This document shows, piece after piece, positions 24,509 through 45,786 of a DNA stretch of 64,000 bases. The notes beneath the pieces are model-generated. The model saw nothing but the letters and a program-made list of their open reading frames with translations, made no database searches and was not told the DNA's origin. Numbering within the stretch: the first letter of the stretch is position 1; the number at the start of each line of letters is the position of its first letter. Position numbers and translations under genes: made by a program. This DNA is from Lachnospiraceae bacterium (GTDB taxonomy: Bacteria; Bacillota; Clostridia; Lachnospirales; Lachnospiraceae), in assembly GCA_022800815.1 (NCBI GenBank), contig JAAWRC010000011.1:13587-77586 (forward strand), in the 5' to 3' direction.

Positions 24509-24536
24509 AAAAACCTCCCTGAAAACGTGTTTCCGA

Positions 24537-25751: not shown

Positions 25752-26110
25752 ATGGAATCCTCCCCAAAGCTGTGAAGCCGGTATTCGATATCGGTGGGGA
25801 CGGCGCTCTCCACGTCCAAGGTGCCTGAGCGCTCGTCAAAATCGCTTGACATGTTATGCAGGTGAACGTGGGCCCCCTTCCTGATCTCTACCGTGGCAGT
25901 ACCGATCCGGGCCCCGTATTTTAAGATTGCGTCCCCCGCATGGATGTCGGTCAGGGCGAATTTGTGGCCGCGGGGGATGTCCTGCAGCGCACAGGCACTG
26001 AGATCTTTTGCGGAGCCGAGGAGCCGGATGGGGCCGGGAATCAGGTTTTCCAGTGCGGTCCCCACGTTGTCGGTGTCGTAGACCACGTATCCGGGTTGCT
26101 GCAAGGCCAT
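25748..26110 (-). CDS. UxaA-family dehydratase small (SAF) subunit
   Basis: DNVGTAL, IPRGHKFAL, KYGARIG, HVHLHN. Confidence 0.88.
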   Translation of the reverse strand: MALQQPGYVVYDTDNVGTALENLIPGPIRLLGSAKDLSACALQDIPRGHKFALTDIHAGDAILKYGARIGTATVEIRKGAHVHLHNMSSDFDERSGTLDVESAVPTDIEYRLHSFGEDSI

Positions 26111-26155
26111 GGAAATTGTCACCTCCTGCCATATATTTTTCCAAAAACCAATTTT

Positions 26156-26202
26156 AATATAACAAAGTATCATATATTTGTCAATGCTTATTGTATGATG
26201 TC
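26156..26202 (-). promoter_or_regulatory. Promoter of the uxaA operon with ATGAT-core operator-like boxes
   Basis: Minus strand: TTGACA (26184-26179), 17 nt, TATATT (26161-26156). ttgtatgatgtc at 26191-26202. Confidence 0.6.
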
Positions 26203-26250: not shown

Positions 26251-27177
26251 ATGCTGAACAATATTTTGACAACGGGAAATCAGGTGTTGGTTCTGCTCGT
26301 TTTGATCGGGGTGGGATTCGTGTGCGGGAAGATTCATATGTTCGACGAGAAGTCCATCAGCCACCTGTCGGCTTTTCTGTTCAAGGTGGTGGCGCCCTGT
26401 GCGATCATCGATTCCTTCTGCCGTCCCTTCGATGCGGGGATGCTCCGGACCATGGCGGCCATTGCCGGCTCGGCCTTCTGCTATTATGTGGTCGGGGCGT
26501 TTCTGGCGAGGCTTTTGATCCGGAAGGGGGAGGCGCCCACGAGGCGGGTGATGCGGTTCGGGGCCATGTTCGGCAACTGCGGGTACATGGGACTGCCGTT
26601 GCAGCAGGTTTTGTTCGGGGATTACGGCGTGTTCTGCGGCGCCATTTTCATCGCCGTGTACAATATCGTGCAGTGGACCTACGGGCTGGTCCTGATCAGC
26701 GGCGATAAAAAGGAGGTCTCGGTTCGCAAACTGATCAATCCGGGAATCGCAGGGGTAATTGTCGGCATGTTCATTTTCTTTTTTTCGGTGGAGCTTCCGC
26801 CGCTGATCGGAAGTCCAATCACGTATCTTGCCGGTCTGAACGTCCCGGTGCCGATGGTGATCAGCGGATATTTTCTGTCGAAGGCGGACTTGAGGACGAT
26901 CTGGAGGCATGCCAGCTATTACAAGACGATCCTGCTGCGGCTGGTCGTGCTGCCGCTCCTTGGAATCCTGGCCTTTTCTTTTACGAACTGGGATTCCACC
27001 CTCTTAGCCTGCTACGTCATCGACATGGCGGTCCCTGTCGCGGCGGCGACCACCATGTTTTCCACCCAGTACGGGCAGGACAGCGAGACTGCGGCAAACC
27101 TGGTGTCCATCAGCACGGTGTTGTCCGTGGTCACCCTGCCCCTGATGGTGGCGCTGGCGCAGAGTCTGTTTTCCTGA
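26251..27177 (+). CDS. AEC-family (malate permease-like) transporter
   Basis: Multi-TM protein with NCGYMGLP and P(V)AAATTMF motifs. Confidence 0.9.
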   Translation: MLNNILTTGNQVLVLLVLIGVGFVCGKIHMFDEKSISHLSAFLFKVVAPCAIIDSFCRPFDAGMLRTMAAIAGSAFCYYVVGAFLARLLIRKGEAPTRRVMRFGAMFGNCGYMGLPLQQVLFGDYGVFCGAIFIAVYNIVQWTYGLVLISGDKKEVSVRKLINPGIAGVIVGMFIFFFSVELPPLIGSPITYLAGLNVPVPMVISGYFLSKADLRTIWRHASYYKTILLRLVVLPLLGILAFSFTNWDSTLLACYVIDMAVPVAAATTMFSTQYGQDSETAANLVSISTVLSVVTLPLMVALAQSLFS

Positions 27178-27224
27178 AAAGGACATGAAAGTTGTATACA
27201 TTATTAAGAAAGAGAGATAGAAGC

Positions 27225-27787
27225 ATGAAGAGAGAAAGCGTGACGCACGTATTGGCGACGGGCCGTCAGGGGAATCCGGAATTTTTTGGGTCGCTGGAAC
27301 GGCTTTTGGAGGGGGATCCGGAGAAGGGGAGCGTGGTCATGGTCGGGCCGCGCAGGGAAACTGGTCGGCGGCGGACGTATTCGCCCTGTCCAAACTGCAG
27401 CTTGCTCATGTGCGGGCGCAACAAGTTTTTTGCGGAACGGAGCGGACTGTGCGGACGGCTCGACGTATCGGAAGAAGGGACGGGGCGGGCGCATGGGAGA
27501 CCCTGAACATTTTCAGGGAGATGAGCGGAAGGGAGCCGTTGGAAAGAGGGAAGCTCGATTTTTCCAGGTTTCCTTTTTGGGGAATCCCCCTGGAAAAGGA
27601 ACGGGTGATCAAGACGCCGGACGTATGGTTCTGGGAGGGACGACTTCCGGAAAAAGAAGGAGAGCTCCCGCAGTATTTTGCATGGGCGCCGGGAATGGAA
27701 CACTGCCTGTACTATGGTTATGCCTCTCTGGTGTGGGAATTCTTTCGCCGCTTCAGGAGAACGGAGGGAACTGGTGAAGTTATATAG
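27225..27787 (+). pseudogene. Possible frameshifted esterase/PHB-depolymerase-like gene fragment
   Basis: Two overlapping frames (27225.. and ..27787). The C-terminus GMEHC...SLVWEFFRRF resembles esterase C-termini. Confidence 0.35.
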
Positions 27788-27888
27788 ATAATGATGTGGG
27801 AACAGGGAAAAAATCAACAGAAAAACGAATTTGAGCATAACTGACAAAAAATATTTGTGTAATTTGTGCAAAACAACGATTTTGGAAT

Positions 27889-27938
27889 GATATCATACAA
27901 TATGTTGACATAACTAAGAAATTAGGATATCATACAAT
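27889..27938 (+). promoter_or_regulatory. Promoter flanked by two identical GATATCATACAAT boxes
   Basis: 13-mers at 27889 and 27926; TTGACA 27905-27910, 17 nt, TATCAT 27928-27933. Confidence 0.75.
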
Positions 27939-28058: not shown

Positions 28059-28973
28059 ATGGAGAGTAAAATGAGAGAGTTCAAGAAGGCTTATGGTATC
28101 TGCCCCGCAGCCAGAACGATTTGGAATGCGGACGAGAGCTACAACAAGAAAGGGATGGAAGCGTATCTGACATGGCTGCTTGATAACGGTGCACAGTCCC
28201 TGTCCATCGTCGGATCCACCGGTGAGAACATGGCCATGAGCGAGGTGGAGCAGAAAGAGGTGCTCGGCCACGTGGCGAGCTTCATTGACGGACAGGTTCC
28301 GCTGGTCGGCGGCACGGGCAAGTATGACACCCATACCACGCTGGACCTGAGCAAGTATGCGGAGAGCGTTGGATACGATGCGCTGCTGGTTCTGCTTCCT
28401 TTTTATTATACCCCTCATAAGAAATCCGTGCTTCAGCACTATCGCAATCTGAGAAAAGAACTGGAAATCCCCATGTTCATCTACAACAATCCTTGGTTTG
28501 CGGGCTACGAGCTCAACACGCAGGAAGTGAAATCCCTGATCGACGACGGGACCATTTCCGGCATCAAGGCGGCCCATGGCGATCCCAACAGAGTCCATGA
28601 CCTGAAATATTACATGGGCGACAAGATCACCGTGTTCTACGGACATGACTACTGTGGTCTGGAAGCTTACTGTGCGGGAGCGGACGGCTGGCTGTCCGGG
28701 ATTCCGGCGATCCTTCCGAAGCAGTGCCGGGCGATCCAGGATGCGGTGCAGGCGAAGGATCTGGATGCGGCGAGGAAGGCGCAGAACAACATCATTCCTT
28801 TCCTGAATTACTTCCTGTATGACAAGGAGAACGGCGTGCCCCATTGGCTCGAGATCTGCAACTACACGCTGGAGGCCCAGGGCCTGAACGTGGGACTTCC
28901 CAGAAGACCTGCGGGAGAGCTGGATGCCGCCAATAAGAAGAAGGTCGAGAAGCTGCTTGCCGACATGGACTGA
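28059..28973 (+). CDS. DapA/NanA-family class I aldolase or dehydratase
   Basis: GSTGE, IYNNP and Schiff-base Lys in GIKAA. Confidence 0.88.
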   Translation: MESKMREFKKAYGICPAARTIWNADESYNKKGMEAYLTWLLDNGAQSLSIVGSTGENMAMSEVEQKEVLGHVASFIDGQVPLVGGTGKYDTHTTLDLSKYAESVGYDALLVLLPFYYTPHKKSVLQHYRNLRKELEIPMFIYNNPWFAGYELNTQEVKSLIDDGTISGIKAAHGDPNRVHDLKYYMGDKITVFYGHDYCGLEAYCAGADGWLSGIPAILPKQCRAIQDAVQAKDLDAARKAQNNIIPFLNYFLYDKENGVPHWLEICNYTLEAQGLNVGLPRRPAGELDAANKKKVEKLLADMD

Positions 28974-29027
28974 CTTGAAGGTACGAGCGGTGGCACAAAA
29001 CAAGAAAAATAAATTGGGAGGCGTTTT

Positions 29028-30287
29028 ATGAAGATTAAAAAAGCGTTGGCAATGTTATGTACGGCGGCGTTGATCGGATCCCTGGCCGGATGCGGAGGCT
29101 CTGCGGAGGAGACGAAGGCACCGGAGAAGGAGACGGAGAAGGCAACCGAGGCTGCGAAGGAAGAAACCACGGGCGGCTCCGGGGAGCAGGAGACGGGCGG
29201 CGGTTCCGAGGCGGCTTCCGGCGACACGATTTATTTGGGACTGAGTGCAAAGATTACCGGGGCGGACGCCGCCAACGGCGACCGCATGGTGAAGGCGGCG
29301 ACCATGGCCGTGGACGAGATCAACGCCAACGGCGGCCTTCTGGGCGGACGGAAGGTGGAGCTGGTGATCGAGGATGACCAGACGGACAATGCGGCCGCCC
29401 TGAACGTGGCGAACCTGTTCATCGCCAATGACGACATCTGTGCGGTTGTCGGCCCTTGGAACAGCGGACAGATCCTTGCGGTGGAGGAAGCTTACGAGAC
29501 GGCGGGGATTCCCTTCATGGGACTGGGAACCAATCCTTCCCTTCTGGAACTGGACAACGAGTACTGCTTCCTGGTCCGCGCCAACGACACTATCATGGCG
29601 AGCGCCGCGGCAAACCTGATCATCAATGAGATCGGTGCCAAGAAGGTCGGCATCATGTACACCACCAACGAGTTCGGTACCGGCGCCATGGAGATCGTGA
29701 AGGCGGCCTGCGAGGCGGAGAATATCGAAGTGCTTCCGGAGGCGATCAATCTCGGAGATACGGACGTGACCGGACAGATCCTGGAGCTTTCCACGGCGGG
29801 CGTCGACTGCATGGTCGTGTGGGCCAGCGATGCGGAGTACGTGATCACGGCGCGCCAGGCATATGAGCTTGGGCTGGATGTGGAGGTGGTGGCTTCCCCC
29901 GCAGTCACCATGGACCAGGTGAGGGAACTGTGCGAGCCGGAGTGGGTGGAAGGCTGGTATTCCGTGACGGACTTCGTGTCCCAGCAGGACGATGCCACTG
30001 TTAAGGAATTCTGTGAGAGATACGCTTCTGATTACGGCGAGGGCCAGAATGCGGAGCTCTACGTGGCTGACGTCTACAGCTCCGTGATGCTCATGGCCGA
30101 CGCCATCGAGCGGGCGGGCAGCACGGACCGGGCCGCCATCAAGGATGCGCTGGCTGAAACAAAGGGCTTTGCCATGCTCCAGGGCGTTGCCAACTGCGAC
30201 GACAGCAATGCGTTTATCCACTCTGCGGCCGTTGCCCAGATCAAGGATTACACCCCTACCATGTACAAGACGGTGGAGGCGGAATAA
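29028..30287 (+). CDS. livK: LIV-type ABC transporter substrate-binding lipoprotein
   Basis: Lipobox LAGC; EINANGG..G and EDDQ motifs. Confidence 0.88.
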   Translation: MKIKKALAMLCTAALIGSLAGCGGSAEETKAPEKETEKATEAAKEETTGGSGEQETGGGSEAASGDTIYLGLSAKITGADAANGDRMVKAATMAVDEINANGGLLGGRKVELVIEDDQTDNAAALNVANLFIANDDICAVVGPWNSGQILAVEEAYETAGIPFMGLGTNPSLLELDNEYCFLVRANDTIMASAAANLIINEIGAKKVGIMYTTNEFGTGAMEIVKAACEAENIEVLPEAINLGDTDVTGQILELSTAGVDCMVVWASDAEYVITARQAYELGLDVEVVASPAVTMDQVRELCEPEWVEGWYSVTDFVSQQDDATVKEFCERYASDYGEGQNAELYVADVYSSVMLMADAIERAGSTDRAAIKDALAETKGFAMLQGVANCDDSNAFIHSAAVAQIKDYTPTMYKTVEAE

Positions 30288-30414
30288 TTCCGGCGCAGTA
30301 TCATGCAGATTTTCTGAATTAAAAGACGCCGCAGGACCGGAACTACCTGGTTGGTTGATGGTTCTGCGGTGTTTTTATCAGAAATTCGTCCATAAAGAAA
30401 GAAGGGAGAAGATC

Positions 30415-31284
30415 ATGCTTCAATCGATCATTCAGCTTTTGGTGACCGGAGTGGCGCTTGGCTTCGTATACGCTCTGGTCGGAGTGGAGTACACGTTGAT
30501 TTGGCAGTCTTCCGGCCTCCTGAACGTTGCCCATAACATGCTTATCACCACGGCGGCGTACGTGTTTGCCGGGACGTTCATCCTGGGTCTCGGCTGGCCG
30601 GTCTGGCTCGGCGTCCTTGCGACGTTGGTCGTCATGTTTATTCTTGGCTATCTGATTTCGGCAATTATTTTCAATCCGCTGCGCAGCATGCCCCTGACCA
30701 TGTATTCCATCGTCGGCACGATGATTTTCGCCAAGGTCATCAACGAGGCCCTGCGTCTGATTTACGGACCTTATACATTTACCATCAACGGATTCATGAC
30801 GGGGGTGATCCGCCTGGGCAACGTGGTTTTTGCCAAGGCATACGGCGTGATCATCGTGGTGGCGGTCGTCATCATCGTCCTGCTGCAGTCTTTTTTGAAG
30901 CTGACGAAACCGGGCAAGGCGATCCGCTGCGTCTCGCAGAATAAGAATGCCGCCTCCATCATGGGGATCAACGTGGACGTGAGCATCAACGTCTCCACGG
31001 GCTTAAGCTGCGTCATCTGCGGGATCATCGGCATCCTGGTGATTCCCCTCTACACGGTCAGCCTGACCATGTCCAACATGATCGGCCTGAAGGGATGGGC
31101 GGCCGGCATCGTGGGCGGCTTTGGCTATATCCCTGGAACGATCGTGGGCGGTCTGTTGATCGGCATCGTGGAATCCATGTCGGTGCTTGCGATTCCCAGT
31201 ACTTACAAGGATATCGTGGCATTCGTGCTGCTGATCGTTGTCCTGTTGATTCGTCCCGGCGGCATCATGCGGCACCGCATTTGA
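30415..31284 (+). CDS. livH: LIV-type ABC permease
   Basis: YALVGV...LN.AH, TKPGKAIR, A..MGIN. Confidence 0.88.
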   Translation: MLQSIIQLLVTGVALGFVYALVGVEYTLIWQSSGLLNVAHNMLITTAAYVFAGTFILGLGWPVWLGVLATLVVMFILGYLISAIIFNPLRSMPLTMYSIVGTMIFAKVINEALRLIYGPYTFTINGFMTGVIRLGNVVFAKAYGVIIVVAVVIIVLLQSFLKLTKPGKAIRCVSQNKNAASIMGINVDVSINVSTGLSCVICGIIGILVIPLYTVSLTMSNMIGLKGWAAGIVGGFGYIPGTIVGGLLIGIVESMSVLAIPSTYKDIVAFVLLIVVLLIRPGGIMRHRI

Positions 31285-31298
31285 TAAGGAGGGAGTGT

Positions 31299-32291
31299 AT
31301 GAATACGAAAAAAAGAAACAGTACTTCCCTTATTCTGGCGGCAATCTGCCTGGCTGCGGCGATCGTCCTGCCGCTTGTCTACAGTGCGACCTATTTCGTT
31401 CAGCTTTTCAGCCAGACGCTGATCAACCTGATCGCAGTCCTCGGCCTGAACGTGGTCATGGGCATGGCCGGGCAGTCGAACCTGGGAACCATCGCACTGG
31501 TGGCCCTCGGCTCCTACACGACGGCGATCATTGCGGACAGGACCGGTTCCACGACGATCGTCGGGCTTCTGGCGGCGCTCGTGGTGGCACTGATCGTCGG
31601 GCTGATGCTGGGCTATCCCAGTCTGCGGGTAAACGGCATCTTCCTGTCGCTTACGACCATGGCCTTTGCGCAGATCGTCTATTCGCTGGCCAATAACATG
31701 GGATGGCTGACGGGCGGCTCCATGGGAATCAAGGGATATCCGAAACCGAACCTCTTTGGATGGGAGATCGGCTCCCAGCGGCAGCTATACTATCTGATTC
31801 TGGTAATCGCAGTCTTGCTCGTCGTCTTGTCGGCCCGTCTCGCAAAATCAAAATACGGGCGCGCGATGAAGGCGGTCCGGGACAACCCGGAAGCGGTGGA
31901 GTCCATCGGGCTCAGCGTGACGAAGCTCAAGATGATGGCGTTTTTGATCGCCACGGTCTTAGGCTGCCTGGCGGGCGTGTTTTACGCTTGGGTCATGCAG
32001 TACGTGGGCCCAACGACCTTCACGACGGATCAGGGAACCAAGTACGTGGTCATGCTGATGCTCGGAGGGATCGGCTCCACGGCCGGCATGGTGATCGGGG
32101 CGATCCTCGTGACCTGCCTGCCCGAGATCCTTCGTTTCATGGGTGATTACTATCAGCTGGTATTTTACAGCATTACCCTGATCATCCTTCTGGTGTATCC
32201 GAAGGGACTCGCAAACCTGTTCATGGAAATCAAGGAAAAATTCAGGCTGCGGGGAACGGCGGGCGCGGCCGGGAAAGGAAAGGAGGACTGA
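31299..32291 (+). CDS. livM: LIV-type ABC permease
   Basis: GLNVVMG.AGQ, SKYGRAM.AVRDN, LGGIG...G..IGA. Confidence 0.88.
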   Translation: MNTKKRNSTSLILAAICLAAAIVLPLVYSATYFVQLFSQTLINLIAVLGLNVVMGMAGQSNLGTIALVALGSYTTAIIADRTGSTTIVGLLAALVVALIVGLMLGYPSLRVNGIFLSLTTMAFAQIVYSLANNMGWLTGGSMGIKGYPKPNLFGWEIGSQRQLYYLILVIAVLLVVLSARLAKSKYGRAMKAVRDNPEAVESIGLSVTKLKMMAFLIATVLGCLAGVFYAWVMQYVGPTTFTTDQGTKYVVMLMLGGIGSTAGMVIGAILVTCLPEILRFMGDYYQLVFYSITLIILLVYPKGLANLFMEIKEKFRLRGTAGAAGKGKED

Positions 32292-32293
32292 GC

Positions 32294-33067
32294 ATGTCTG
32301 TATTACGGTTAGAGCACGTGACAAAGCGCTTCGGCGGCCTTGTCGCGGTAAACGATCTTTCCTTTACCGTTGAAGAGCGTTCGATTCATGCCCTGATCGG
32401 GCCCAACGGGTCGGGGAAATCCACTTCGATCAACATGATCAACGGTTCGTTCCAGGCCACCTCCGGCAAGATTTATTTCAACGACCAGGACATTACCACC
32501 ATGTCCATGCATAAGATCGCACGGGCCGGCATGGGGCGCACGTTTCAGAACCTGAAGCTGTTCCACTCCATGACGGCGCTTGAGAACGTCATGCTGGGCG
32601 GGCAGCTTCACACGAAGGTCGGCTTTGGCAGGTTCGTGGTGGATCCTTTTAAAACCCGGAGGGAGGAGGAGGAGCTTAGAGAAAAGGCCCTCGGCATCAT
32701 GAAGTCCATCGGCATTGAAAAATATGCGGACCGAAACGTGGCCAACCTTCCTTACGGCCGTCAGAAGATGACGGAGCTTGCGAGGACGCTGATGATCGAT
32801 CCCTCCCTGATTCTTCTGGACGAACCGGCGGCGGGCCTCAATCCCAGCGAGCGCGCAGAGTTCGTGGAGATCATCAAGCAGGTGTACGAGTCCGGAAAGG
32901 ACATCCTGCTCATCGAGCACAACATGGACATCATCATGAACATCAGTCACAGGATTACCGTGATCAACCATGGCGCCAAGATTGCGGAGGGGGAACCTGC
33001 GGAGATACAGAACAACCCGGACGTCATTCGGGCATATCTTGGCGACCGGTATAAAATCGGCATGTAG
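32294..33067 (+). CDS. livG: LIV-type ABC ATP-binding protein
   Basis: GPNGSGKS, RTFQN, LPYG, LLDEP. Confidence 0.92.
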   Translation: MSVLRLEHVTKRFGGLVAVNDLSFTVEERSIHALIGPNGSGKSTSINMINGSFQATSGKIYFNDQDITTMSMHKIARAGMGRTFQNLKLFHSMTALENVMLGGQLHTKVGFGRFVVDPFKTRREEEELREKALGIMKSIGIEKYADRNVANLPYGRQKMTELARTLMIDPSLILLDEPAAGLNPSERAEFVEIIKQVYESGKDILLIEHNMDIIMNISHRITVINHGAKIAEGEPAEIQNNPDVIRAYLGDRYKIGM

Positions 33068-33081
33068 GGAGGGAGATAATC

Positions 33082-33795
33082 ATGTTTTTTGAAATGGAAC
33101 ATTGTGATACCTACTACGGACAGATCCAGGCGTTGTATGATATCTCCATCAGAATCGAGGCGGATGAGATCATTTCCATCATCGGCGCCAACGGCGCCGG
33201 GAAAACCACCCTGATGAAGTGCATCATGGGGCTGGTCCCTGCCAAAAAGGGAAAGGTCCTGTATCTGGACCAGGAGATCCAGGCCCTGAAAACGCATCAG
33301 ATCGTCCAGAGAGGAATCAGTTACGTGCCGGAGGGCAGAGAAATTTTTCCCAATATGACGGTCCTTGAAAACCTGGAGATGGGGGCTTACACGTTAAAGC
33401 TTTCCGCAAAAGAGAAGGGGAAGAAGCTGGAGGAGATGTACGAGCTTTTTCCCAAATTGAAGGAGAGGAAGGGACAGAAGGCGGGGACCCTTTCCGGCGG
33501 GGAACAGCAGATGGTGGCCATCGCCCGGGGACTGATGCTGAGTCCCAAGCTGCTCATGCTGGACGAACCGTCCCTCGGCCTTGCGCCGGTGATCGTGGAC
33601 GAGGTTTTCGACACGATCGTACATGTAAATAAGGAAGCGAACATTCCGGTTCTCCTGGTGGAGCAGAACGCTTACATGGCGTTGACGGTATCGAACAGAA
33701 GTTACGTCCTGGAAAACGGCGTGATCGTGGACCAGGGGGACAGCAAGGTGCTGCTGGAGAGTGATTCCATCCGCACGGCGTATCTGGGTAAATAA
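33082..33795 (+). CDS. livF: LIV-type ABC ATP-binding protein
   Basis: GANGAGKT, VPEGR, LSGGEQQ, LDEPS. Confidence 0.92.
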   Translation: MFFEMEHCDTYYGQIQALYDISIRIEADEIISIIGANGAGKTTLMKCIMGLVPAKKGKVLYLDQEIQALKTHQIVQRGISYVPEGREIFPNMTVLENLEMGAYTLKLSAKEKGKKLEEMYELFPKLKERKGQKAGTLSGGEQQMVAIARGLMLSPKLLMLDEPSLGLAPVIVDEVFDTIVHVNKEANIPVLLVEQNAYMALTVSNRSYVLENGVIVDQGDSKVLLESDSIRTAYLGK

Positions 33796-33818
33796 ATGGA
33801 AATGGAGGCTTGGACCCT

Positions 33819-34949
33819 ATGGGAGCAAAAGACAGTTACACGAGATATCAGTACAAAAGGCTGAACGAGCTGGCGGTGGAGGTGTTTCGCCGTTACGGTT
33901 TTTCCGACGGGGACAGTGAAAAGATTGCGGACGTGATCCTGACGTCGGACAGACTGGGGATTGAATCCCACGGCGTGAACCGGCTGACCCTGTATCCCTT
34001 TGGCCTTGACATCGGCAGGATCAAGAAGGACGTGAAGATGGAAGTGGTCGAGGACCGCTTAAGCTGTGCGGTGATCGACGCAAAGGACGGCATGGGACAA
34101 CTGGCCGGCATCATGGGAATGGAGCTGGCGATCAAAAAGGCGAGGCAGTACGGAGTCGGAATGGTCAGCGTCCGCAATTCCAACCATTTCGGCATTGCGG
34201 GGTATTATTCCAGGATGGCGGCGAAGGAAGGCCTGATGGGCGTCTCCATGACCAACGCAGAGGCCCTCGTGGTTCCGACCTTCGCCAAGGAGCCCATGTT
34301 CGGCACGAACCCGATTGCGATCACGATCCCCGCAGACCCGCACCCCTTCCACATGGACTTTTCCACCTCGGTCATGACCTGCGGGAAGATGGAGGTGTAT
34401 GCCAAGATCGACCACGAGCTGCTTCCGGGCATGCTGGTGGACGAGAGGGGCGTGTGTTCCACGGACCCCAACAAGTTCCTGACGATCCGGGACAATAAGT
34501 CCAATCCCGCCTACACGGAAAAAACCCTGGGCGGCATCATGCCCATGGGCGGGGAGGGGATGAATTTTGGCGGACACAAGGGCTACGGCATGGCCCTCCT
34601 GGTAGACATTATGTGCGGGATCATGTCCCACGGAGCCGTCTCCAAGGGCGTCCGGGTGACGAAGGACAAGGAAAAATGCTGTCATTTCTTTGCCGCCATC
34701 GATTACAGCCTGTTCGGGGACAAGGCCGAGACGACCCGTCTTCTGTCGGAATACCTGCAGAGCATGCGCGACGCGGAGTCGGCGGAGGGCCAGCCCAGGG
34801 TGTACGTGCACGGGGACAAGGAGGCGGAAGCCGAGAAGGATGTGCTGGCCCACGGCGTCGGCATCAATCCGGCAACCTTTGCGGAGATCGAAAAATACTG
34901 CACGAAGCTTGGAATCAACGCCCACGAATATCTGATTCCGGCGGAGTGA
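33819..34949 (+). CDS. Ldh_2-family (malate/L-lactate/2-hydroxyacid) dehydrogenase
   Basis: GIESHG, RNSNHFG, GTNPIA, GGHKGYG motifs. Confidence 0.9.
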   Translation: MGAKDSYTRYQYKRLNELAVEVFRRYGFSDGDSEKIADVILTSDRLGIESHGVNRLTLYPFGLDIGRIKKDVKMEVVEDRLSCAVIDAKDGMGQLAGIMGMELAIKKARQYGVGMVSVRNSNHFGIAGYYSRMAAKEGLMGVSMTNAEALVVPTFAKEPMFGTNPIAITIPADPHPFHMDFSTSVMTCGKMEVYAKIDHELLPGMLVDERGVCSTDPNKFLTIRDNKSNPAYTEKTLGGIMPMGGEGMNFGGHKGYGMALLVDIMCGIMSHGAVSKGVRVTKDKEKCCHFFAAIDYSLFGDKAETTRLLSEYLQSMRDAESAEGQPRVYVHGDKEAEAEKDVLAHGVGINPATFAEIEKYCTKLGINAHEYLIPAE

Positions 34950-34970
34950 TTCCGGACAGGAGGGAAAAGG

Positions 34971-36248
34971 TTGAATATTTTTGACGAGCTTTTGGAGGAC
35001 AATAAAATTCCGAGATTTTTCCGGGTCCGCCATGAGATGGACCATTCCCACGTCGAGGACATTCCCGCAGCCGTGGCGAAGGCCCTGGAACGGGAAAGCA
35101 CCCTGGACCAGATCCGCCCCGGCGACACGGTATGCGTGACGTCCGGAAGCCGGGACGTGGCCAACGTCGACGTGATCACCAGGGCCGTCTGCGACCAGGT
35201 GAAGGCCGTGGGCGGGAAACCGTTCATCATTCCCGCCATGGGAAGCCATGCGGGGGCCAACGCCGAGGGCCAGAAGGGGATCCTTGCAGGCTACGGCATA
35301 ACGGAGGAGACCATGGGAGTCCCCGTCAGGGCCAGCATGGAGACGGAGGTCCTGGCTTACTCGAAGGACGGTCTGGAGATTCGCATTGACAAATACGCCA
35401 ATGCGGCGGACTACATCATTGCCGTGGGGCGCATCAAGGCTCACACGGATTTTCGCGGCCCGGTGGAGAGCGGCATCTGCAAGATGCTCGTGATCGGGAT
35501 GGGGAAACAGCACGGGGCTTACCAGTGCCATAAGCTGGGATTCAAGAGCATGGCGGCAAACGTGATGGAGTTTGCCGGGGCTATCATTGAAAAGAAGCCG
35601 AACCTGTTTGCGCTGGGACTCATCGAGAACGCCTATCACGAGACCTGCAGGATCGAGGCCGTTCCCGCCGCAAGGATTCTGGAGGAGGAGCCTGGGCTTT
35701 TGGAATATGCGAAATCCCGCATGGCGAGGATCCCTTTTGAGCAGGCGGACATCCTGTTCGTGGATGAAACCGGGAAGGACATCAGCGGTGCGGGGATGGA
35801 CCCCAACATCACGGGGCGCTCCCCGGTTCTCGGCATAAGCGCTCCCTATTTCCAGCGGATCGCCGTGTTTGACCTGACGGATAAGTCCCACGGAAACTTC
35901 GGCGGTCTGGGCAGCGCCGACGTGACGACGAGACGGCTATATGAAAAGGTGGACTTTGAGCAGACCTACCCCAACGGGATCACCTCGGCGGAACCGATTT
36001 CCGTGAAGCTGCCGGTCATCATGCCGAACGACAGAAACGCCATGCAGTTTGCGCTGCGGACGGCCACGGACTGTGACTGGAATAGGGGGCCGAGGATCGT
36101 CTGGCTGAAAAACACCCTCTCCCTCTCGGAGTTTTACATCTCGGAAGCCCTGAGGGAGGATGCGGAAAAGCTGGAGAACGTGGAAATCGTGAGCGGCCCC
36201 CTGGAGGTGGTGTTTGACGAGGAGGGAGCGGTAAAGGGATTTATTTGA
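34971..36248 (+). CDS. LarA/DUF2088-like 2-hydroxyacid racemase/epimerase family protein
   Basis: GSR, PAMGSH, RIK.HT.F, GMD.NI.GR patterns. Confidence 0.75.
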   Translation: MNIFDELLEDNKIPRFFRVRHEMDHSHVEDIPAAVAKALERESTLDQIRPGDTVCVTSGSRDVANVDVITRAVCDQVKAVGGKPFIIPAMGSHAGANAEGQKGILAGYGITEETMGVPVRASMETEVLAYSKDGLEIRIDKYANAADYIIAVGRIKAHTDFRGPVESGICKMLVIGMGKQHGAYQCHKLGFKSMAANVMEFAGAIIEKKPNLFALGLIENAYHETCRIEAVPAARILEEEPGLLEYAKSRMARIPFEQADILFVDETGKDISGAGMDPNITGRSPVLGISAPYFQRIAVFDLTDKSHGNFGGLGSADVTTRRLYEKVDFEQTYPNGITSAEPISVKLPVIMPNDRNAMQFALRTATDCDWNRGPRIVWLKNTLSLSEFYISEALREDAEKLENVEIVSGPLEVVFDEEGAVKGFI

Positions 36249-36301
36249 CATGTCTTGCCGTCATTATAGGAAATTAATTTAAATAAAAAGGAGAAAACAT
36301 C

Positions 36302-37219
36302 ATGACATTTGTGGAAAAGTATGGAAAAATTTTACTTCCCCTGATCACGCCGTACAAGGAAAATGAGGACGTGGATTACGACAGATATGCGGAACTGATC
36401 GAGTACGTGGTGACGAAGGATCTGTGTGACTCCCTGATCGTGACGGGGACGACGGGGGAGGCTTCCCTTCTGACCTTTGACGAGAGGGTGAAGCTGATGG
36501 AGACCGCAGTAAAGGCGGCGGCGGGCCGCAAGCCGGTCATCGCGGGTACAGGCTGCGCTTCCACCAAGGAGACCGTCATGCTGACGAAGAAGGCGGAGGA
36601 GCTTGGCATCGAGCTCTGCCTGATCGTGTGCCCCTTCTACAACAAGCCGACGCAGGAGGGCCTGTATCTGCATTACAAGGCGATCGCAGAGAGCGTGAAG
36701 GTCGACATCATGCTGTACAACATCCCGATCTTCGTCGGTGTCAACCTGGAGGCAGAAACGGTCGGCAGACTGGCGGCCATTCCCAACATCGTCGCCGTCA
36801 AGGACGAGGCCGGCGTGAATCCGACGCAGGTGACGGACTTCATTCTGGCGGCCAGAGCCGTGGACCCCGACTTTGCGGTCTATAACGGCGACGACGTGAT
36901 GCTTCTTCCCACGATCGTTCAGGGGGCCCAGGGACTGGTTTCCGGAGGATCCCACATTTTCGGCCACGAGGTGCGGGCGATTTTTGAAGCTTTTGAAAAG
37001 GGAGACAACGAGAAGGCGAAGGAGCTGTTTGTCCCGATGTACCGTTTCTGCAAATCGACCGGGCAGAACGGCAGGATTCTGCCGAACTCCATTCTGAGGC
37101 CGGCCATCGAGGCGGTCACCGGCGTGAAACTCGGAAACGCCCGTCTGCCCCTGGCACCGCCGACGGAGGACGAGATGAAGGTCACGCTCGGGATCCTGAG
37201 AGAGATTGGCAAGCTGTAA
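36302..37219 (+). CDS. Second DapA-family class I aldolase
   Basis: GTTGE, LYNIP, AVKDE. Confidence 0.88.
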   Translation: MTFVEKYGKILLPLITPYKENEDVDYDRYAELIEYVVTKDLCDSLIVTGTTGEASLLTFDERVKLMETAVKAAAGRKPVIAGTGCASTKETVMLTKKAEELGIELCLIVCPFYNKPTQEGLYLHYKAIAESVKVDIMLYNIPIFVGVNLEAETVGRLAAIPNIVAVKDEAGVNPTQVTDFILAARAVDPDFAVYNGDDVMLLPTIVQGAQGLVSGGSHIFGHEVRAIFEAFEKGDNEKAKELFVPMYRFCKSTGQNGRILPNSILRPAIEAVTGVKLGNARLPLAPPTEDEMKVTLGILREIGKL

Positions 37220-37270
37220 ATACATAGGTTTGGTGGCGGGAGAGCGGCGGTTGCCGCATGCTCCGGAGGT

Positions 37271-37315
37271 TCTGCGGTCAATGTTCGGACAAGGAAAATT
37301 GACCGCAGATTTTTT
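37271..37315 (+). terminator. Intrinsic terminator
   Basis: tctgcggtcaat / attgaccgcaga stem followed by a T-tract. Confidence 0.7.
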
Positions 37316-37460
37316 AAACTTCGATTTTGTTGCGGTGGATGCGGCGGTACACGGCAAAACATTGACAATTTAACCGTGGTATGTGATAATCAACTTGTTG
37401 CCGTCAGAATGTATGATTGTCTGTGTACATGGCCGGGTAGATCATGGATGGAGAATTGGG

Positions 37461-38225
37461 ATGAACATGTTAAATAAAAGACTGGCTGACGGCCGTTTTC
37501 TTCTGGGTGCGCATGTCAACGGGTGCGACCCCTCCCTGACGGAGCTCATGGGCCAGTGCGGTTTTGACTATTTGTGGATCGACACGGAACACACGGCGAT
37601 CGATTATCATACGCTTCAGATGCACTTGATAGCGGCGAAGGCGGCGGGATGTCCGGCGATCGTTCGCGTGCCGTGGAACGAGACCTATCTGGCGAAGCGG
37701 GTGCTGGAGCAGGGGCCGGACGGGATTGTCTTTCCCAGCATCAATTCCGCCGAGGAGGCGAAACGGGCGATGGACGCCTGCTTCTATCCGCCGACGGGGA
37801 TGCGCGGCTATGGCCCGATCCGTGCGACAGGGTACGGGCTTACGCCCATGGCGGAGTATATCGCAAAAGCGGACGACTTCTGCAGGTTTATCCAGGTGGA
37901 GCACGTGTCTGCGGTCTCGCATCTGGAGGAAATTCTGGAGGTGCCGGGGATCGACGGGGTGATCCTGGGACCCTGCGACCTTTCCGGTTCGATCGGAAGG
38001 CTCGGCGAGACGGAATGCTTCGTGATGCGGGAGCTCATAGACCGGACGATCAAAATCTGCGGGGAGAGAAAGGTGCCGGTGGGGGTGTCCCTCGGCCTCT
38101 GCGGTGCGGAGGAGATTTTGGACTGGAGACGCCGGGGCATACAGTTTTTGTCCGCAGGTTCCGAGTACAGTTATATTTTGCAGGGGGCTTCCAGGCTGGC
38201 GGCCTGTGTGAAAAAAAATCTTTAA
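37461..38225 (+). CDS. HpcH/HpaI-family class II aldolase
   Basis: WIDTEH, VRVP, IQVE, GPCDL. Confidence 0.88.
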   Translation: MNMLNKRLADGRFLLGAHVNGCDPSLTELMGQCGFDYLWIDTEHTAIDYHTLQMHLIAAKAAGCPAIVRVPWNETYLAKRVLEQGPDGIVFPSINSAEEAKRAMDACFYPPTGMRGYGPIRATGYGLTPMAEYIAKADDFCRFIQVEHVSAVSHLEEILEVPGIDGVILGPCDLSGSIGRLGETECFVMRELIDRTIKICGERKVPVGVSLGLCGAEEILDWRRRGIQFLSAGSEYSYILQGASRLAACVKKNL

Positions 38226-38244: not shown

Positions 38245-38961
38245 ATGAAAGAAATACAGCGAATCTCAGTGACAGACGCAGTGGTGAACAGTATCCGTGA
38301 AATGATTGAGTCGGGGCAATACGAAGTGGGGCACAAACTTCCGGCGGAGGCCGCTTTCTGCGAGCAGATGAAGGTCAGCAGAACCTGCGTCCGGGAGGCC
38401 CTCCGGGTGCTCCAGACGCTCGGATACGTGGAAATCCGGCCCGGAAAGGGCGCCTTTGTCGGAAATTTTCGTCAAAAACAATCGGAAGAAAAGTGGTACG
38501 AGGGAGAAGACGCAAAGTTTTACGATTTCATGGAGGTGAGGATTGCGCTGGAGAGCCTGTCCGTGCGGCTGTCCGTCGAGAGGGCCACGGACGAACAGAT
38601 CAAGGAGCTTGCGGAGGTACATCATGCGTTTGTCGCGGCCACGGAGAAACAGGAGATCGAGCAGATGATCATGTTGGACGAACTGTTCCACTCCCAGATT
38701 GCGCTTTTCAGCAATAACCAGCTGCTGATCAACATCAACCGCCTGCTGTTGAAGGGATTCCGCGCATACCGGGGCAGTACTTTTACCAACAAGGACGTGT
38801 ATCGGAATGCGATAGAGCCTCATGCGAAAATTGTGGAATGTTTTCAAAGGCGCGATTCCGTACAGGCGGTGGCCGAGATGAACCGCCACCTGGGCATTTC
38901 CAAAAATGACATGGAGATCATACATGCGAAGGCGATAGAAAAAGGGGAAGCCGAGGTGTAA
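38245..38961 (+). CDS. FadR/GntR-family regulator (close paralogue of 20569..21273)
   Basis: MKEIQRISVTDAVV...VSRTCVREAL plus FCD domain. Confidence 0.93.
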   Translation: MKEIQRISVTDAVVNSIREMIESGQYEVGHKLPAEAAFCEQMKVSRTCVREALRVLQTLGYVEIRPGKGAFVGNFRQKQSEEKWYEGEDAKFYDFMEVRIALESLSVRLSVERATDEQIKELAEVHHAFVAATEKQEIEQMIMLDELFHSQIALFSNNQLLININRLLLKGFRAYRGSTFTNKDVYRNAIEPHAKIVECFQRRDSVQAVAEMNRHLGISKNDMEIIHAKAIEKGEAEV

Positions 38962-39040: not shown

Positions 39041-39247
39041 TTGACAATTCTGGACAAAGAGACTAAAATAAAGCTACATATCCGGGAGCACATCTGAACC
39101 GTTCGGTTACTGATTCCCTGTATGAAATAATAGAAACTATAGCGGAACAGAAACGAAAGGACGTCCCGGTTGGAAGTGTACGCACAGGTAAAGAATAGCC
39201 ACAAGGTATTTTCCTTTCATCTCTGTCCGCAGAAATGGGAGGAGAAT
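39041..39247 (+). promoter_or_regulatory. Near-consensus promoter followed by a ~175-nt structured 5' leader of the rpn gene
   Basis: TTGACA 39041-39046, 17 nt, TAAAAT 39064-39069; two crossing complementary segment pairs in the leader. Confidence 0.65.
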
Positions 39248-40096
39248 ATGTCAAGAAGAACATTACAGGAACTAAACTTGCTGGATGATTTTCTGTTTGG
39301 GGAGATCATGAGGAACCAAAAATGGGGAGAGCTTTTCAGTCGGTTTTTGCTGGAAACGATTTTTCAGAGGAAATTCGGGCCCCTCAGGGTGGTGCCGCAG
39401 AAAGTGTATGGCGGAAAGGATACGGGCCTGCACGGGGCCAGGCTGGATGTGTTCCTGGAAGAGGCGGAGGAAGAAGGGGCGTCCTGCCGGGCTTCGATCT
39501 ATGACGTGGAGCCGGACCAGAAGAAGATGAGTCCCGGGGACATCTCCCGTCGCACCCGTTTCTATCACGCATTGATCGATGCGGATTGTCTGAAATCAGG
39601 GGCGGACTACGAGAGCTTGAAGGACGTGATCGTCATATTTATCCTCTCCGACGATCCATTTGGGGCAGACCGGATGATCTACACGATCCGCAGCATGTGC
39701 AAGGAAGATCCGGAGATGTCTTATGACGACGGGGCGCAAACGTTGTTTCTGTACACAAAGGGGACAAAGGGACAGGCTCCGAAAGCCCTTGGCCAGCTTT
39801 TGCGCTACATGGAAGCGAGTATCGCGGAAAATGCGGTGAATCCGGAGCTTGAGAAGATCCATCACATTGTTGAGTCCGTGAAGCGGAATAAGGAGGTGGA
39901 GATCAGTTATATGAAATCCTGGGAAAGAGATCAAGAATTGGTTAGGCAGGGCCGGGAGGAAGAGCGGGAAAACACGGAGCGGGAGCGGCGCAGGGCGGAT
40001 CAGGCAGAGCGGGAGGCAGAACAGGAAAAACGGAAAGCAGAGGCAAAAATATTGGCATTAGAGGCGGAACTGAGAAAATATAGAGAGAAGGTATGA
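39248..40096 (+). CDS. Rpn / PD-(D/E)XK_2 family nuclease (putative transposase)
   Basis: LNLLDDFLF, RLDV, DVE, RTRFY...ID, VIFI...DPFG, LFLYTKG; coiled-coil tail. Confidence 0.9.
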   Translation: MSRRTLQELNLLDDFLFGEIMRNQKWGELFSRFLLETIFQRKFGPLRVVPQKVYGGKDTGLHGARLDVFLEEAEEEGASCRASIYDVEPDQKKMSPGDISRRTRFYHALIDADCLKSGADYESLKDVIVIFILSDDPFGADRMIYTIRSMCKEDPEMSYDDGAQTLFLYTKGTKGQAPKALGQLLRYMEASIAENAVNPELEKIHHIVESVKRNKEVEISYMKSWERDQELVRQGREEERENTERERRRADQAEREAEQEKRKAEAKILALEAELRKYREKV

Positions 40097-40108
40097 CGAT
40101 TGAAGACA

Positions 40109-40157
40109 TCTGTCAAACGGGATCGGAGTCCCGTGGCAGATGTCTTCGTTTTTTTAT
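40109..40157 (+). terminator. Long intrinsic terminator after rpn
   Basis: gaagacatctg...cagatgtcttc stem followed by a T7 tract. Confidence 0.7.
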
Positions 40158-40269
40158 AAACGTCCTCTATATATTGTTCGAATTTCCGTATTGGTATTTG
40201 GGGCGGAGGAATGTTAGGATGAAAAAAACAGATTCCAGAGGGGGATCGGTGGAGAAGGAGGAGAGAGCG

Positions 40270-41247
40270 ATGAGCCAGACTGTGAAAGAGATGCCGGCGG
40301 GGATCCGGAACCTGTTCACGTCCATCACCCATTACAAAGAGGGAGAAAGGATATTGATCATCACGGACGACAACAAGCTGGAGATCGGGCGGCTGGTGTA
40401 CCGGTATGCGAAGGAGGTGGCGAGGGACGTGGCGATGGCGGTCATGGAGCCGAGAAAGGGGCACGGTTCCGAGCCGCCCCAGGCGGTCGCACAGGCGATG
40501 CTGGCCTGCGACATCTGCCTGGGGGCGACCACCATGTCGCTGTACCATTCCCAGGCGAGGAACATTGCCTGTAAGGAGAGGGGCATGCGCTGGGTCGGCC
40601 TGCAGGACTTCGTGCCGGAAATGTTCGAGCGGGGCGGAATGACGGCGGATTTTGACGAGATCCACAGGGAGATCGACCGGGTCGCCCACCTGTACGAGGG
40701 GAAACGGTTCCGGCTGACGGCGCCCGGCGGGACGGACATGACCTGCAGCGTGGAGGGCAGGAAGGTGGTGGTGGACTACGGGACGGCCATCACGCCCGGT
40801 GCCGCCTGCGGCACGCCCAATGCGGAGATTGCCCTGGGGCCGGTGGAGGGGACGGCGGAGGGCGTCCTCGTCATAGACGGGAGTATTCCCCATCCGCTGC
40901 TCAACGTCATCGAGGAGCCGATCACCTGCAGGGTGGAGAAGGGTTATATTACGGAGATCACGGGGGGACGCCAGGCGGAGATTCTGAGACGGATACTGGA
41001 GGAGTATCACGATCCCACGGTCTATAACGTGGCGGAGCTGGGCCTGGGAATGAATCCTCTCAATGAGATCATCGGGCACATGGCTCCGGACGAGGGTTCC
41101 TACGGAAACATCCATGTGGGGATCGGGAAGAACACGGGTTTTGGCGGCCATGTGACGTCGCCGCTTCACCTGGACATGGTGGTGAAAACCATTACGGCGG
41201 AGATTGACGGGAGATATTTCATGAAAGACGGGGTTTTGATGGTTTGA
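40270..41247 (+). CDS. M29-like (aminopeptidase T / leucyl aminopeptidase-type) metallo-hydrolase
   Basis: EPP, P.AE, DGSIP, AELGLG.NP, HVGIG. Confidence 0.78.
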   Translation: MSQTVKEMPAGIRNLFTSITHYKEGERILIITDDNKLEIGRLVYRYAKEVARDVAMAVMEPRKGHGSEPPQAVAQAMLACDICLGATTMSLYHSQARNIACKERGMRWVGLQDFVPEMFERGGMTADFDEIHREIDRVAHLYEGKRFRLTAPGGTDMTCSVEGRKVVVDYGTAITPGAACGTPNAEIALGPVEGTAEGVLVIDGSIPHPLLNVIEEPITCRVEKGYITEITGGRQAEILRRILEEYHDPTVYNVAELGLGMNPLNEIIGHMAPDEGSYGNIHVGIGKNTGFGGHVTSPLHLDMVVKTITAEIDGRYFMKDGVLMV

Positions 41248-43295: not shown

Positions 43296-43446
43296 CTGTC
43301 AAAACACCTCGTCTAACCATGATTTTTCTGGATGTTCCCATTATACCATAAAAAAAGAAATGGATTCATTTAGTTTCTCTATGGCTTTCTGGAAAATATG
43401 TATTGGTGTGGAGGGTGTCGGCGGATGCGGGAAGGGGGATTCAGGG

Positions 43447-44214: not shown

Positions 44215-44236
44215 CTGCCTTGCAGGAAAACTCAGC

Positions 44237-44455
44237 CCCGGCAATTGCGCAGCCACGAAACTTGATAAAGATTCTGACGACTGCTTCCAGGAAAAGCCCT
44301 CTGCGCCGTGGAAGCAAGACCAGAGAAGACAGGAGGGATTCTTTCCCGAGTGGCTTCTGCGGTTCTGGGCTTGCTGGAACGCTTGGCGCAGCAGGCTTTG
44401 GATGGACGCAGTCGTCAGAATCTGTTCTGCGATTCTGAGTTGTGCAATTGCCGGG
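44237..44455 (+). repeat. Palindromic intergenic element, copy 1 (candidate structured RNA or REP/MITE-like element)
   Basis: 117-nt core 44291-44407 matches the reverse complement of 50515-50630; perfect 15-bp inner IR plus an outer IR. Confidence 0.85.
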
Positions 44456-44571
44456 AACTCATATAGAATCTCTATGGATTCTTTGTAAGATATGTATTGG
44501 AATTTTGAAATGGGAACGGGTAAACTATTAAAAACAACCAAAAGAAGCAAGACGGTCAGGAGGAAATAACG

Positions 44572-45765: not shown

Positions 45766-45786
45766 AAAAACGAAGGAGGATTCACA

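Follow-up and report, generated by a model that had tools for sequence, protein, structure and literature searches.

Which acid would be imported and broken down by a bacterial gene cluster that combines a LIV-type ABC importer, a LarA-like epimerase, and three aldolase-fold enzymes? The question is raised by positions 28059-38225 of a 64-kb stretch of DNA from a Lachnospiraceae bacterium (the window, by which we mean the whole stretch that was analyzed). The original prediction listed here two DapA-like proteins, the five importer genes, an Ldh_2-family dehydrogenase, the LarA-like enzyme, and an HpcH-family aldolase, and Pfam and NCBIfam scans confirmed that these genes are present where they had been placed and form one plus-strand operon. 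Our comparisons indicate that the cluster very probably belongs to a conserved, co-regulated catabolic unit organized around a nickel-pincer nucleotide (NPN)-dependent C2 epimerase, which is paired with the Ldh_2 dehydrogenase.

The LarA-like protein (425 aa; 34971-36248, plus strand) scored 500.6 bits against NCBIfam model NF052515 ("nickel pincer cofactor-dependent isomerase, group 22"), above the cutoff of 400 bits, and matched Pfam Lar_N weakly (28.8 bits). A phmmer search of solved structures with this protein gave no match, and a 17-sequence profile gave a marginal match to LarA (E = 0.19), so that confirmation of the family depended on a predicted fold. The AlphaFold model, for which 17 homologs were used (predicted local distance difference test score, 85.7), displayed the two-domain LarA fold, and its 19 best solved-structure matches in Foldseek all belong to the LarA superfamily (E = 4e-13 to 4e-9), which bears out the original assignment to the NPN-dependent racemases/epimerases. 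Two alignments (hidden Markov model-to-PDB and hhalign) equated H93 with LarA H108 (GFHRG) and H158 with LarA H174 (PHF), and K171 aligned to LarA K184, the cofactor-tethering lysine (SGGRK). H187 and R61 were equated with the nickel ligand H200 and with R75 of LarA by invariance and by a spacing identical to that of LarA only (H187 follows K171 by 16 residues, and R61 precedes H93 by 32). None of the five residues (R61, H93, H158, K171, and H187) varies among 88 family members. Since both catalytic histidines are kept, the protein is predicted to be of the two-histidine LarA type, as expected of a 2-hydroxyacid racemase or epimerase and in contrast to the single-histidine LarA of PMC12611868. 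We therefore consider it a putative NPN-dependent 2-hydroxyacid epimerase.

The original prediction had noted that larB, larC, and larE, whose products make the cofactor, are missing from the window, and none of the three was found within the 64 kb. The genome search that it proposed settled the cofactor question: larC, larE, and larB lie side by side elsewhere in this 3.4-Mb genome, on contig C45 (G000:C45:40665-43298), all scoring above cutoffs. This genome contains a single group-22 copy. When 150 genera of the family were sampled, one genome each, group-22 LarA was detected in nine genomes, and a complete genome of the window's own genus had none. Its presence in only nine of the sampled genomes shows the module to be accessory and patchily distributed. 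LarB was present in eight of the nine genomes with group-22 LarA, compared with 75 of the remaining 141. This co-occurrence fits cofactor dependence, although the relatedness of the sampled genomes means that the numbers do not amount to a formal test. The genome also contains a canonical lactate racemase gene (G000:C6:3988-7602, locus L009; NF033504, 612 bits) directly after the gene for the alpha subunit of the electron-transfer flavoprotein, an arrangement likened to that of lactate-utilizing butyrate producers.

Relatives of the enzyme were collected by a one-genome-per-species scan of ~185,000 species genomes, at least 591 of which contained one. Eighty loci were kept, and sister loci (numbered with the prefix L) were compared by tblastn, clustering, and Pfam checks, with metagenomic contigs included. 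The nearest relatives are Lachnospiraceae metagenome-assembled genomes. At least a dozen loci from other gut Clostridia contain a recurring module with either a LIV or a TRAP transporter. It comprises Ldh_2 adjacent to group-22 LarA, one or two DHDPS-family enzymes, malic enzyme with an AEC-family permease, a split dehydratase, and a GntR/FCD regulator, occasionally joined by a FAH-family protein, an SDR protein, HpcH, or a third type of DHDPS enzyme. Because this gene set recurs in many other genomes, its arrangement is not due to chance; the combination is not unique to this genome and represents a conserved, patchily distributed module of gut Clostridia.

Ldh_2 adjoins group-22 LarA in 13 of the 80 loci and also in L012-L014 and L095-L096. 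Malic enzyme orthologs, mostly 80-86% identical, lie beside group-22 LarA in L015-L018, L023, and L095, and orthologs of the large dehydratase subunit (64-75% identical) do so in L030, L095, L096, and L097, with SAF homologs of 112-118 aa preceding the large subunit in L095-L097. AEC permease genes neighbor malic enzyme in L016, L018, and L095 and the module itself in L012, and FAH-family proteins are encoded beside LarA in L021, L026, and L040. The three aldolase-fold enzymes noted originally are all real, but they are unequally conserved. Orthologs of the first DapA-like protein (DapA1; 55-91% identical: L011, L012, L013, and L095) and of the second (DapA2; 72-82% identical: L016, L017, L021, L022, L024, L026, L040, L095, and L096) are widespread, whereas HpcH homologs occur only in L017 (43%) and L032 (38%). 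TRAP genes (DctPQM) replace the LIV genes in L013, L016, L017, and L021, and TctC is present in wider relatives; the nearest solved structures to the TRAP binding proteins of the sister loci (~150 bits) were too distant to name a ligand. The closest syntenic relative, L095, contains SAF, GD_AH, DapA1, LIV, Ldh_2, LarA, and DapA2 genes in one operon that faces the GntR, AEC, and malic enzyme genes. L017 has TRAP genes where the window has LIV genes, and its gene set, with HpcH and two DHDPS genes, is otherwise that of the window.

We took the "group 22" of NF052515 to be that of Desguin et al. 2020, who defined 25 groups and listed group 22, with 20 members, as of "unknown function"; its neighbors there include SDR proteins, IlvD-type dehydratases, LarE, TRAP transporters, and sugar kinases (PMC7583248). 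Ten relatives from differing gene contexts scored 478-567 bits against NF052515, and all other group-22 clades still pass its cutoff; this "equivalog" model probably spans several specificities. The malate racemase model NF052593 gave 21 bits against a cutoff of 500. A FastTree analysis of 88 sequences placed all 21 Ldh_2-linked copies within one clade of 33 (99% local support), and the neighbors in other group-22 clades were a zinc-dependent alcohol dehydrogenase with a TRAP transporter, a D-2-hydroxyacid dehydrogenase with an SDR protein, or a 346-aa protein. Group 22, one of the larger unassigned nickel-pincer branches, is thus split into context-defined clades, and one of them can now be assigned a fixed partner (Ldh_2), a predicted regulon and operator, and a short list of candidate substrates, which makes it directly testable. 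In Treponema and other spirochetes (L044, L057, L065, L070, L093, and L094), a DUF1537 kinase gene (minus strand), LarA (plus strand), and a PdxA-like gene (plus strand) occur in a fixed order. PdxA together with a DUF1537 kinase is reportedly the signature of a C4 acid-sugar route, and the arrangement suggests that LarA of this clade may be a C2 epimerase feeding a threonate/erythronate kinase-dehydrogenase route.

The unit appears to extend beyond the region originally delimited. The genes listed there are real, and predicted regulatory sites add to them the GntR regulator, the AEC permease, and a divergent operon encoding the dehydratase and malic enzyme. The operon promoter (TTGACA-17 nt-TATCAT; 27905-27933, plus strand) lies within a control region (27889-27938) in which two exact copies of a 13-mer, GATATCATACAAT (27889-27901 and 27926-27938), flank and overlap the promoter. 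A third copy with one mismatch, GACATCATACAAT (26190-26202, minus strand), lies over the promoter between the dehydratase operon and the AEC permease gene (TTGACA-17 nt-TATATT; 26184-26156, minus strand; control region 26156-26202). The predicted operator thus covers -35/-10 elements of both promoters. Six matches were found in the window vs 0.88 expected, and three of the six are in promoters. The core 10-mer, ATCATACAAT, recurs exactly before malic enzyme, transporter, and DHDPS genes in L016 (Muricoprocola aceti), L017 (bacterium 1XD8-76), L022, L026, and L096, and the operator motif lies upstream of the malic enzyme orthologs in L016 and L017. Because the operator is common to the promoters and its 10-mer recurs in the sister loci, we grouped malic enzyme, the AEC permease, and the dehydratase with the LarA operon in one predicted regulon.

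The probable operator-binding protein is the GntR/FCD regulator (38245-38961, plus strand; Pfam GntR and FCD) encoded directly 3' of HpcH. A second GntR/FCD paralog (20569-21273), 55% identical to it, is the other candidate. The GntR regulators of L016, L017, and L096, which share the operator 10-mer, are 50-57% identical to the two window paralogs. The two paralogs bracket the regulon, and neither is closer than the other to the single regulator of L016 or of L017 (56-57%).

According to the open reading frame (ORF) listing and the Pfam and NCBIfam scans, the plus-strand operon comprises eleven genes, including the GntR/FCD regulator, with intergenic gaps of 2-163 bp; likely start codons were chosen with the help of ribosome-binding sites. 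Its first gene encodes DapA1, a DHDPS/NanA-family class I (Schiff-base) pyruvate lyase (28059-28973; Pfam DHDPS, 181 bits) with a GSTGE motif, a Schiff-base lysine in GIKAAHG, and no DapA arginine; every score against the NCBIfam equivalogs was under cutoff, and ESM Atlas look-ups with DapA1 and the dehydratase returned family names only. The five LIV-type importer genes (29028-33795) encode a binding protein (29028-30287; Peripla_BP_6), two permeases (BPD_transp_2; about 30415-31284 and 31299-32291, with the likely starts 30415 and 31299 placed by ribosome-binding sites), and two ATPases (ABC_tran; 32294-33067 and 33082-33795). The nearest solved structures to the binding protein are amino-acid binders (~100 bits). 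The Ldh_2-family NAD(P) 2-hydroxyacid/2-oxoacid dehydrogenase (33819-34949, alternative start 33810; Pfam Ldh_2, 350 bits) is encoded directly upstream of LarA. Its best NCBIfam match was L-sulfolactate dehydrogenase (NF040650), at 241 bits against a cutoff of 500, and its best solved-structure match was 1v9n, named malate dehydrogenase. The HpcH/HpaI-family class II pyruvate aldolase (about 37461-38225, alternative start 37383; Pfam HpcH_HpaI, 92 bits) scored 152 bits against HpaI (cutoff 369) and 132 bits against GarL (cutoff 407), so its predicted identity holds at the Pfam family level only. The gene is preceded by its own promoter-like site at 37362-37390.

DapA2, a DHDPS-family class I enzyme (36302-37219, plus strand), scored above the dapA cutoff (TIGR00674, 236 vs 206 bits), and its identity as a true DapA was considered. 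In DapA, R138 binds aspartate semialdehyde. The DapA2 motif YNIPIFVG has F where DapA has R138 (E. coli numbering, YNxPxRT), and a better dapA is present on contig C29 of the same genome (339 bits); the missing substrate-binding arginine and the C29 gene ruled this identity out. Judged from its sequence, DapA2 is a DapA paralog and not DapA. Its 72-82% identical orthologs in other gut Clostridia are at systematic risk of being misnamed DapA.

The UxaA dehydratase that had been placed next door is present, although it is split and lies upstream on the minus strand (24537-26173). The large subunit (24537-25751) matched Pfam GD_AH_C (228 bits) and GD_AH_second (93 bits), and the small SAF-domain subunit (25748-26110; the ORF as listed reaches 26173) likely starts at ATG 26110, the in-frame ATG after GGAGGTGA, which agrees with the position of the promoter. 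The sole NCBIfam match was galactarate dehydratase (TIGR03248; 128 and 36 bits against a cutoff of 731). These matches identify a predicted member of the UxaA/GarD superfamily whose SAF and GD_AH domains are divided over two genes. The last gene of this divergent operon encodes malic enzyme (391 aa; 22370-23545, minus strand; Pfam malic and Malic_M) and is followed by a terminator-like hairpin (22369-22349). The AEC-family permease gene (26251-27177; Pfam Mem_trans, 126 bits) is on the plus strand.

We propose the following pathway, every step of which is deduced from the chemistry of the enzyme families. The LIV-type importer, or TRAP in sister loci, would take up the acid. Group-22 LarA, with the nickel-pincer cofactor made by LarB/C/E, would transiently oxidize and re-reduce C2 and so invert the 2-hydroxyl, turning stereoisomers that cannot be used directly into the isomer accepted by the next enzyme. 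For Ldh_2 we propose a stereospecific, NAD(P)-linked dehydrogenase activity at C2, either with this 2-hydroxy/2-oxo acid or with one derived from it, which fits the pairing of other group-22 clades with other dehydrogenases, including a D-specific 2-hydroxyacid dehydrogenase. The split dehydratase would yield a 2-keto-3-deoxy acid (oxaloacetate in the C4 case). The DHDPS-family enzymes, here joined by HpcH, would cut the C3-C4 bond to give pyruvate and CO2, glyoxylate, or tartronate semialdehyde, and malic enzyme and the AEC permease would serve a C4-dicarboxylate branch (malate/oxaloacetate to pyruvate).

The substrate is likely an acid carrying a carboxylate, because TRAP and TctC systems occur in the relatives. 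The evidence for a diacid is weaker. Our tentative choice, with chances somewhat below even, is a dicarboxylate/aldarate (tartrate, a pentarate, or glucarate/galactarate) whose uptake and fermentative breakdown would be under GntR/FCD control. This choice is favored because malic enzyme and the AEC permease belong to the predicted regulon, FAH proteins occur in variant loci, and Ldh_2 is closest, among named enzymes, to malate and sulfolactate dehydrogenases. It is favored also because the nearest models of the dehydratase, HpcH, and DapA2 are GarD, GarL/HpaI, and the heptenedioate aldolase TIGR02313, respectively; the last three models describe aldolases that act on dicarboxylic 2-keto-3-deoxy acids. 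In the C4 case only, the conserved genes alone would complete tartrate to oxaloacetate to pyruvate. Malate racemase groups 5 and 6 have similar neighbors, namely UxaA-type dehydratase, malic enzyme, and FAH (PMC7583248 Table S1). Finally, the inflamed mouse gut forms tartrate isomers, which Salmonella degrades via oxaloacetate (bioRxiv 10.1101/2023.12.08.570695). If the substrate is an aldarate or tartrate, commensal Clostridia, beyond Enterobacteriaceae, would use sugar-oxidation products of the gut.

Several observations speak against a dicarboxylate. Two or three enzymes of pyruvate-lyase fold exceed the needs of a C4 route, and their proposed role as oxaloacetate decarboxylases comes from comparison with other class I aldolases rather than from homology to an established decarboxylase. 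Genes that would consume the glyoxylate or tartronate semialdehyde released from C5/C6 aldarates are not conserved, and several sister loci (L016, L017, and L011-L014) have no dehydratase within 10 kb. No protein reached the equivalog cutoff of GarD, GarL, KdgD, malate racemase, or sulfolactate dehydrogenase. Compared with other group-22 clades, the Ldh_2-linked clade has lost two arginines (N197 and W378), which a more anionic substrate does not predict. Clade-specific residues were rejected as a guide to substrate charge, the signal being ambiguous and, if anything, contrary. A monocarboxylic sugar acid would be equally compatible with the sugar-type genes of L011-L013 and L016, which encode a glucose-1-dehydrogenase-like SDR, a ribokinase-like PfkB, and a xylose-isomerase-like protein together with an FGGY kinase.

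Such a monocarboxylic acid, an aldonate or deoxy-aldonate, is a somewhat unlikely substrate. LarA would flip C2, as GntE does on mannonate/gluconate, the UxaA-type enzyme would dehydrate the product, and the DHDPS aldolases would release pyruvate and an aldehyde (glycolaldehyde, glyceraldehyde, or lactaldehyde), with Ldh_2 and malic enzyme peripheral. A UxaA-type dehydratase, a DHDPS-type aldolase, and GntR/FCD form the usual non-phosphorylative sugar-acid set. The SDR, IlvD-type dehydratase, sugar kinase, and TRAP context reported for group 22 points the same way, as do the PdxA/DUF1537 kinase (C4 acid-sugar route) pairing in other group-22 clades, the SDR, PfkB, and isomerase/FGGY kinase genes of L011-L013 and L016, and the TRAP binding protein of L013, whose best solved-structure match was 4pf6, followed by sialic-acid binders. 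However, this scheme leaves the most tightly linked partners without a role, since Ldh_2 adjoins LarA across the clade and malic enzyme/AEC carry the common operator, and no conserved enzyme would handle the aldehyde. The constant adjacency of Ldh_2 and LarA, with a DHDPS gene as the next most constant partner, and the lack of a dehydratase around many sister loci would be accounted for by a 3-deoxy-2-hydroxy acid (2,4-dihydroxyglutarate, 2,4-dihydroxybutyrate, or a saccharinic-type acid). LarA and Ldh_2 would turn both C2 epimers of such an acid into a 4-hydroxy-2-oxo acid that the DHDPS/HpcH aldolases cleave directly, with no dehydratase step, and other LarA homologs are described as racemizing 2,4-dihydroxybutyrate (PMC11770544). 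This route is improbable given that the dehydratase gene of L095 lies in the same operon, directly before DapA1, that the window dehydratase carries the common operator, and that malic enzyme is left unexplained.

Degradation of sulfolactate would explain why L-sulfolactate dehydrogenase is the best NCBIfam match of Ldh_2. A ComC-like Ldh_2 and a sulfolactate-racemizing LarA would supply the SAF and GD_AH proteins, acting as a SuyAB-type sulfo-lyase that yields pyruvate and sulfite; SuyAB, too, belongs to the UxaA family and consists of a small and a large subunit, and sulfolactate must be racemized in the known route (bioRxiv 10.1101/2023.08.01.551581). The SlcC/ComC-SuyAB systems of Chromohalobacter and Paracoccus share with the window an Ldh_2-family dehydrogenase, the two-subunit lyase, and the need for C2 inversion, but they invert C2 by two dehydrogenases and not by LarA. 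With the Ldh_2 score at 241 vs 500 bits, the other scores also under cutoffs, no sulfite exporter, sulfite reductase, or sulfosugar genes in the cluster or sister loci, and no role for the DHDPS enzymes and malic enzyme, we regard this route as very improbable. A nitrogen-containing acid (hydroxy-amino or cyclic imino) is a highly unlikely substrate as well. LIV-type binding proteins usually bind amino acids, as do the nearest solved structures to this one (~100 bits), the Ldh_2 family includes pyrroline- and piperideine-2-carboxylate reductases, and DapA2 is a close DapA paralog; Ldh_2 would then be an imine reductase/dehydrogenase, the DHDPS enzyme a deaminase, and LIV an amino-acid importer. 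Yet TRAP substitutes for LIV in sister loci, LarA chemistry is known for 2-hydroxy acids only, the UxaA-type dehydratase and malic enzyme fit poorly, DapA2 lacks the aspartate-semialdehyde-binding arginine, and the regulon contains no aminotransferase or deaminase. Thus, of the substrates named in the original prediction, an aldonate/aldarate-type acid is still the best guess, and a hydroxy-amino acid has little in its favor now that TRAP is seen to replace LIV.

For the dicarboxylate/aldarate that we prefer, a bolder proposal, which we regard as doubtful, is that this LarA clade is the missing tartrate/aldarate epimerase and that the regulon normalizes the stereochemistry of C4-C6 sugar diacids in strict gut anaerobes. 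To our knowledge, tartrate epimerase activity (EC 5.1.2.5) has no assigned gene. All stereoisomers, including those made non-enzymatically by inflammatory oxidants, could then be fermented by means of the split UxaA-type dehydratase, the class I lyases releasing CO2, glyoxylate, or tartronate semialdehyde, and malic enzyme.

The literature searched contained no paper that characterizes this cluster or an orthologous one, and the combination of Ldh_2, group-22 LarA, DHDPS, and malic enzyme appeared in none of it. The original prediction had matched the cluster to no recognized pathway and had asked whether orthologous clusters were already assigned to a substrate; no such counterpart was found in these papers. 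The module is an uncharacterized but conserved assembly of known enzyme families around a catalogued LarA group. Other LarA groups are the subject of PMC11770544 and PMC12611868. Among characterized LarA homologs, GntE1/GntE2 (LarAH19/LarAH20; D-gluconate/D-mannonate 2-epimerases) and Mar1/Mar2 (LarAH5/LarAH6) have the same two-domain fold (PMC7583248). They share with the window enzyme the two catalytic histidines, the NPN-tethering lysine, the nickel-binding histidine (in the window enzyme by spacing), larBCE genes elsewhere in the genome, and a location inside acid-catabolic clusters, and the neighbors of Mar groups 5/6 resemble those in the window. They differ in that the window LarA is very distant in sequence, as its Lar_N and malate racemase scores indicate, and in that GntE has E-V after the second histidine where the window LarA has T-D (HTD, invariant in its 17 closest relatives). 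Its constant partner, Ldh_2, is not reported for any characterized LarA group.

The closest aldarate routes are those for glucarate/galactarate in E. coli (GarD, GarL, GarR, and GarK) and Bacillus subtilis (ycbCDEFGHJ: GarD, the DHDPS-family KdgD, and GntR/FCD). Common to these and the window are a UxaA/GarD-family dehydratase, HpcH and/or a DHDPS enzyme acting on a 2-keto-3-deoxy diacid, and GntR/FCD, and a glycerate kinase gene lies nearby in the window. In contrast, the window dehydratase is split, no protein reaches the GarD, GarL, or KdgD cutoffs, the regulon lacks tartronate-semialdehyde reductase and ketoglutarate-semialdehyde dehydrogenase, and an NPN epimerase, Ldh_2, malic enzyme, the AEC permease, and a binding-protein-dependent importer are added. 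The TtdAB and DtuAB enzymes of enterobacteria are fumarase-type iron-sulfur dehydratases, not UxaA-type. The tartrate fermentation that they support follows the same logic as our proposed C4 route, from a stereospecific dehydratase to oxaloacetate and on to pyruvate/malate, and shares the gut habitat; TtdAB and DtuAB were recognized by their resemblance to the tartrate dehydratase of E. coli (bioRxiv 10.1101/2023.12.08.570695). Those systems include neither an epimerase nor class I lyases, and for the window tartrate is hypothetical only.

The glycerate kinase (41244-42377, plus strand; Pfam Gly_kinase, 435 bits; TIGR00045, 407 bits) is possibly linked to the pathway; it adjoins group-22 LarA in one of the 80 loci and is not conserved in the sister loci. 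In 39170-42377, an Rpn-family nuclease-like gene and a gene for a 384-aa protein (weak M29-peptidase match), neither with a counterpart in the sister loci, lie between the regulator and the glycerate kinase. A shikimate-dehydrogenase-like NAD(P) dehydrogenase gene (23615-24646, minus strand; Pfam Shikimate_dh_N, 51.8 bits), which lies in the divergent operon between the dehydratase and malic enzyme genes, scored under cutoff with all NCBIfam aroE models and had no homolog in the 80 related loci; its ORF start overlaps the upstream gene, and the true start is probably later. This gene, the Rpn-like and M29-like genes, and a 264-aa ORF (21287-22081) were rejected as module members for want of a sister-locus counterpart and an operator, as was a second LIV/GarR/HpcH cluster (43360-52508). 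The ~0.7 kb between the AEC permease gene and the operon promoter (27180-27880) contains overlapping ORFs on both strands, e.g., 27266-27871 (minus) and 27286-27777 (plus). ORF 27266-27871, the only one of this region that was scanned, matched no Pfam or NCBIfam family, and the region may be a decayed gene or contain an unannotated small gene.

Two sister loci carry two group-22 LarA genes each (L018, 2101-4561 and 10470-12871; L096, 2163-4605 and 11283-12602). Ldh_2 lies beside both copies in L018, and L096 has one Ldh_2 gene, beside the first copy. The pairs suggest duplication or the stacking of related routes in one island. An AXE1 (CE7-type) esterase is encoded in two other sister loci (L013, 7850-8821; L014, 16848-17822), which hints that the acid may reach these two bacteria esterified or O-acetylated.

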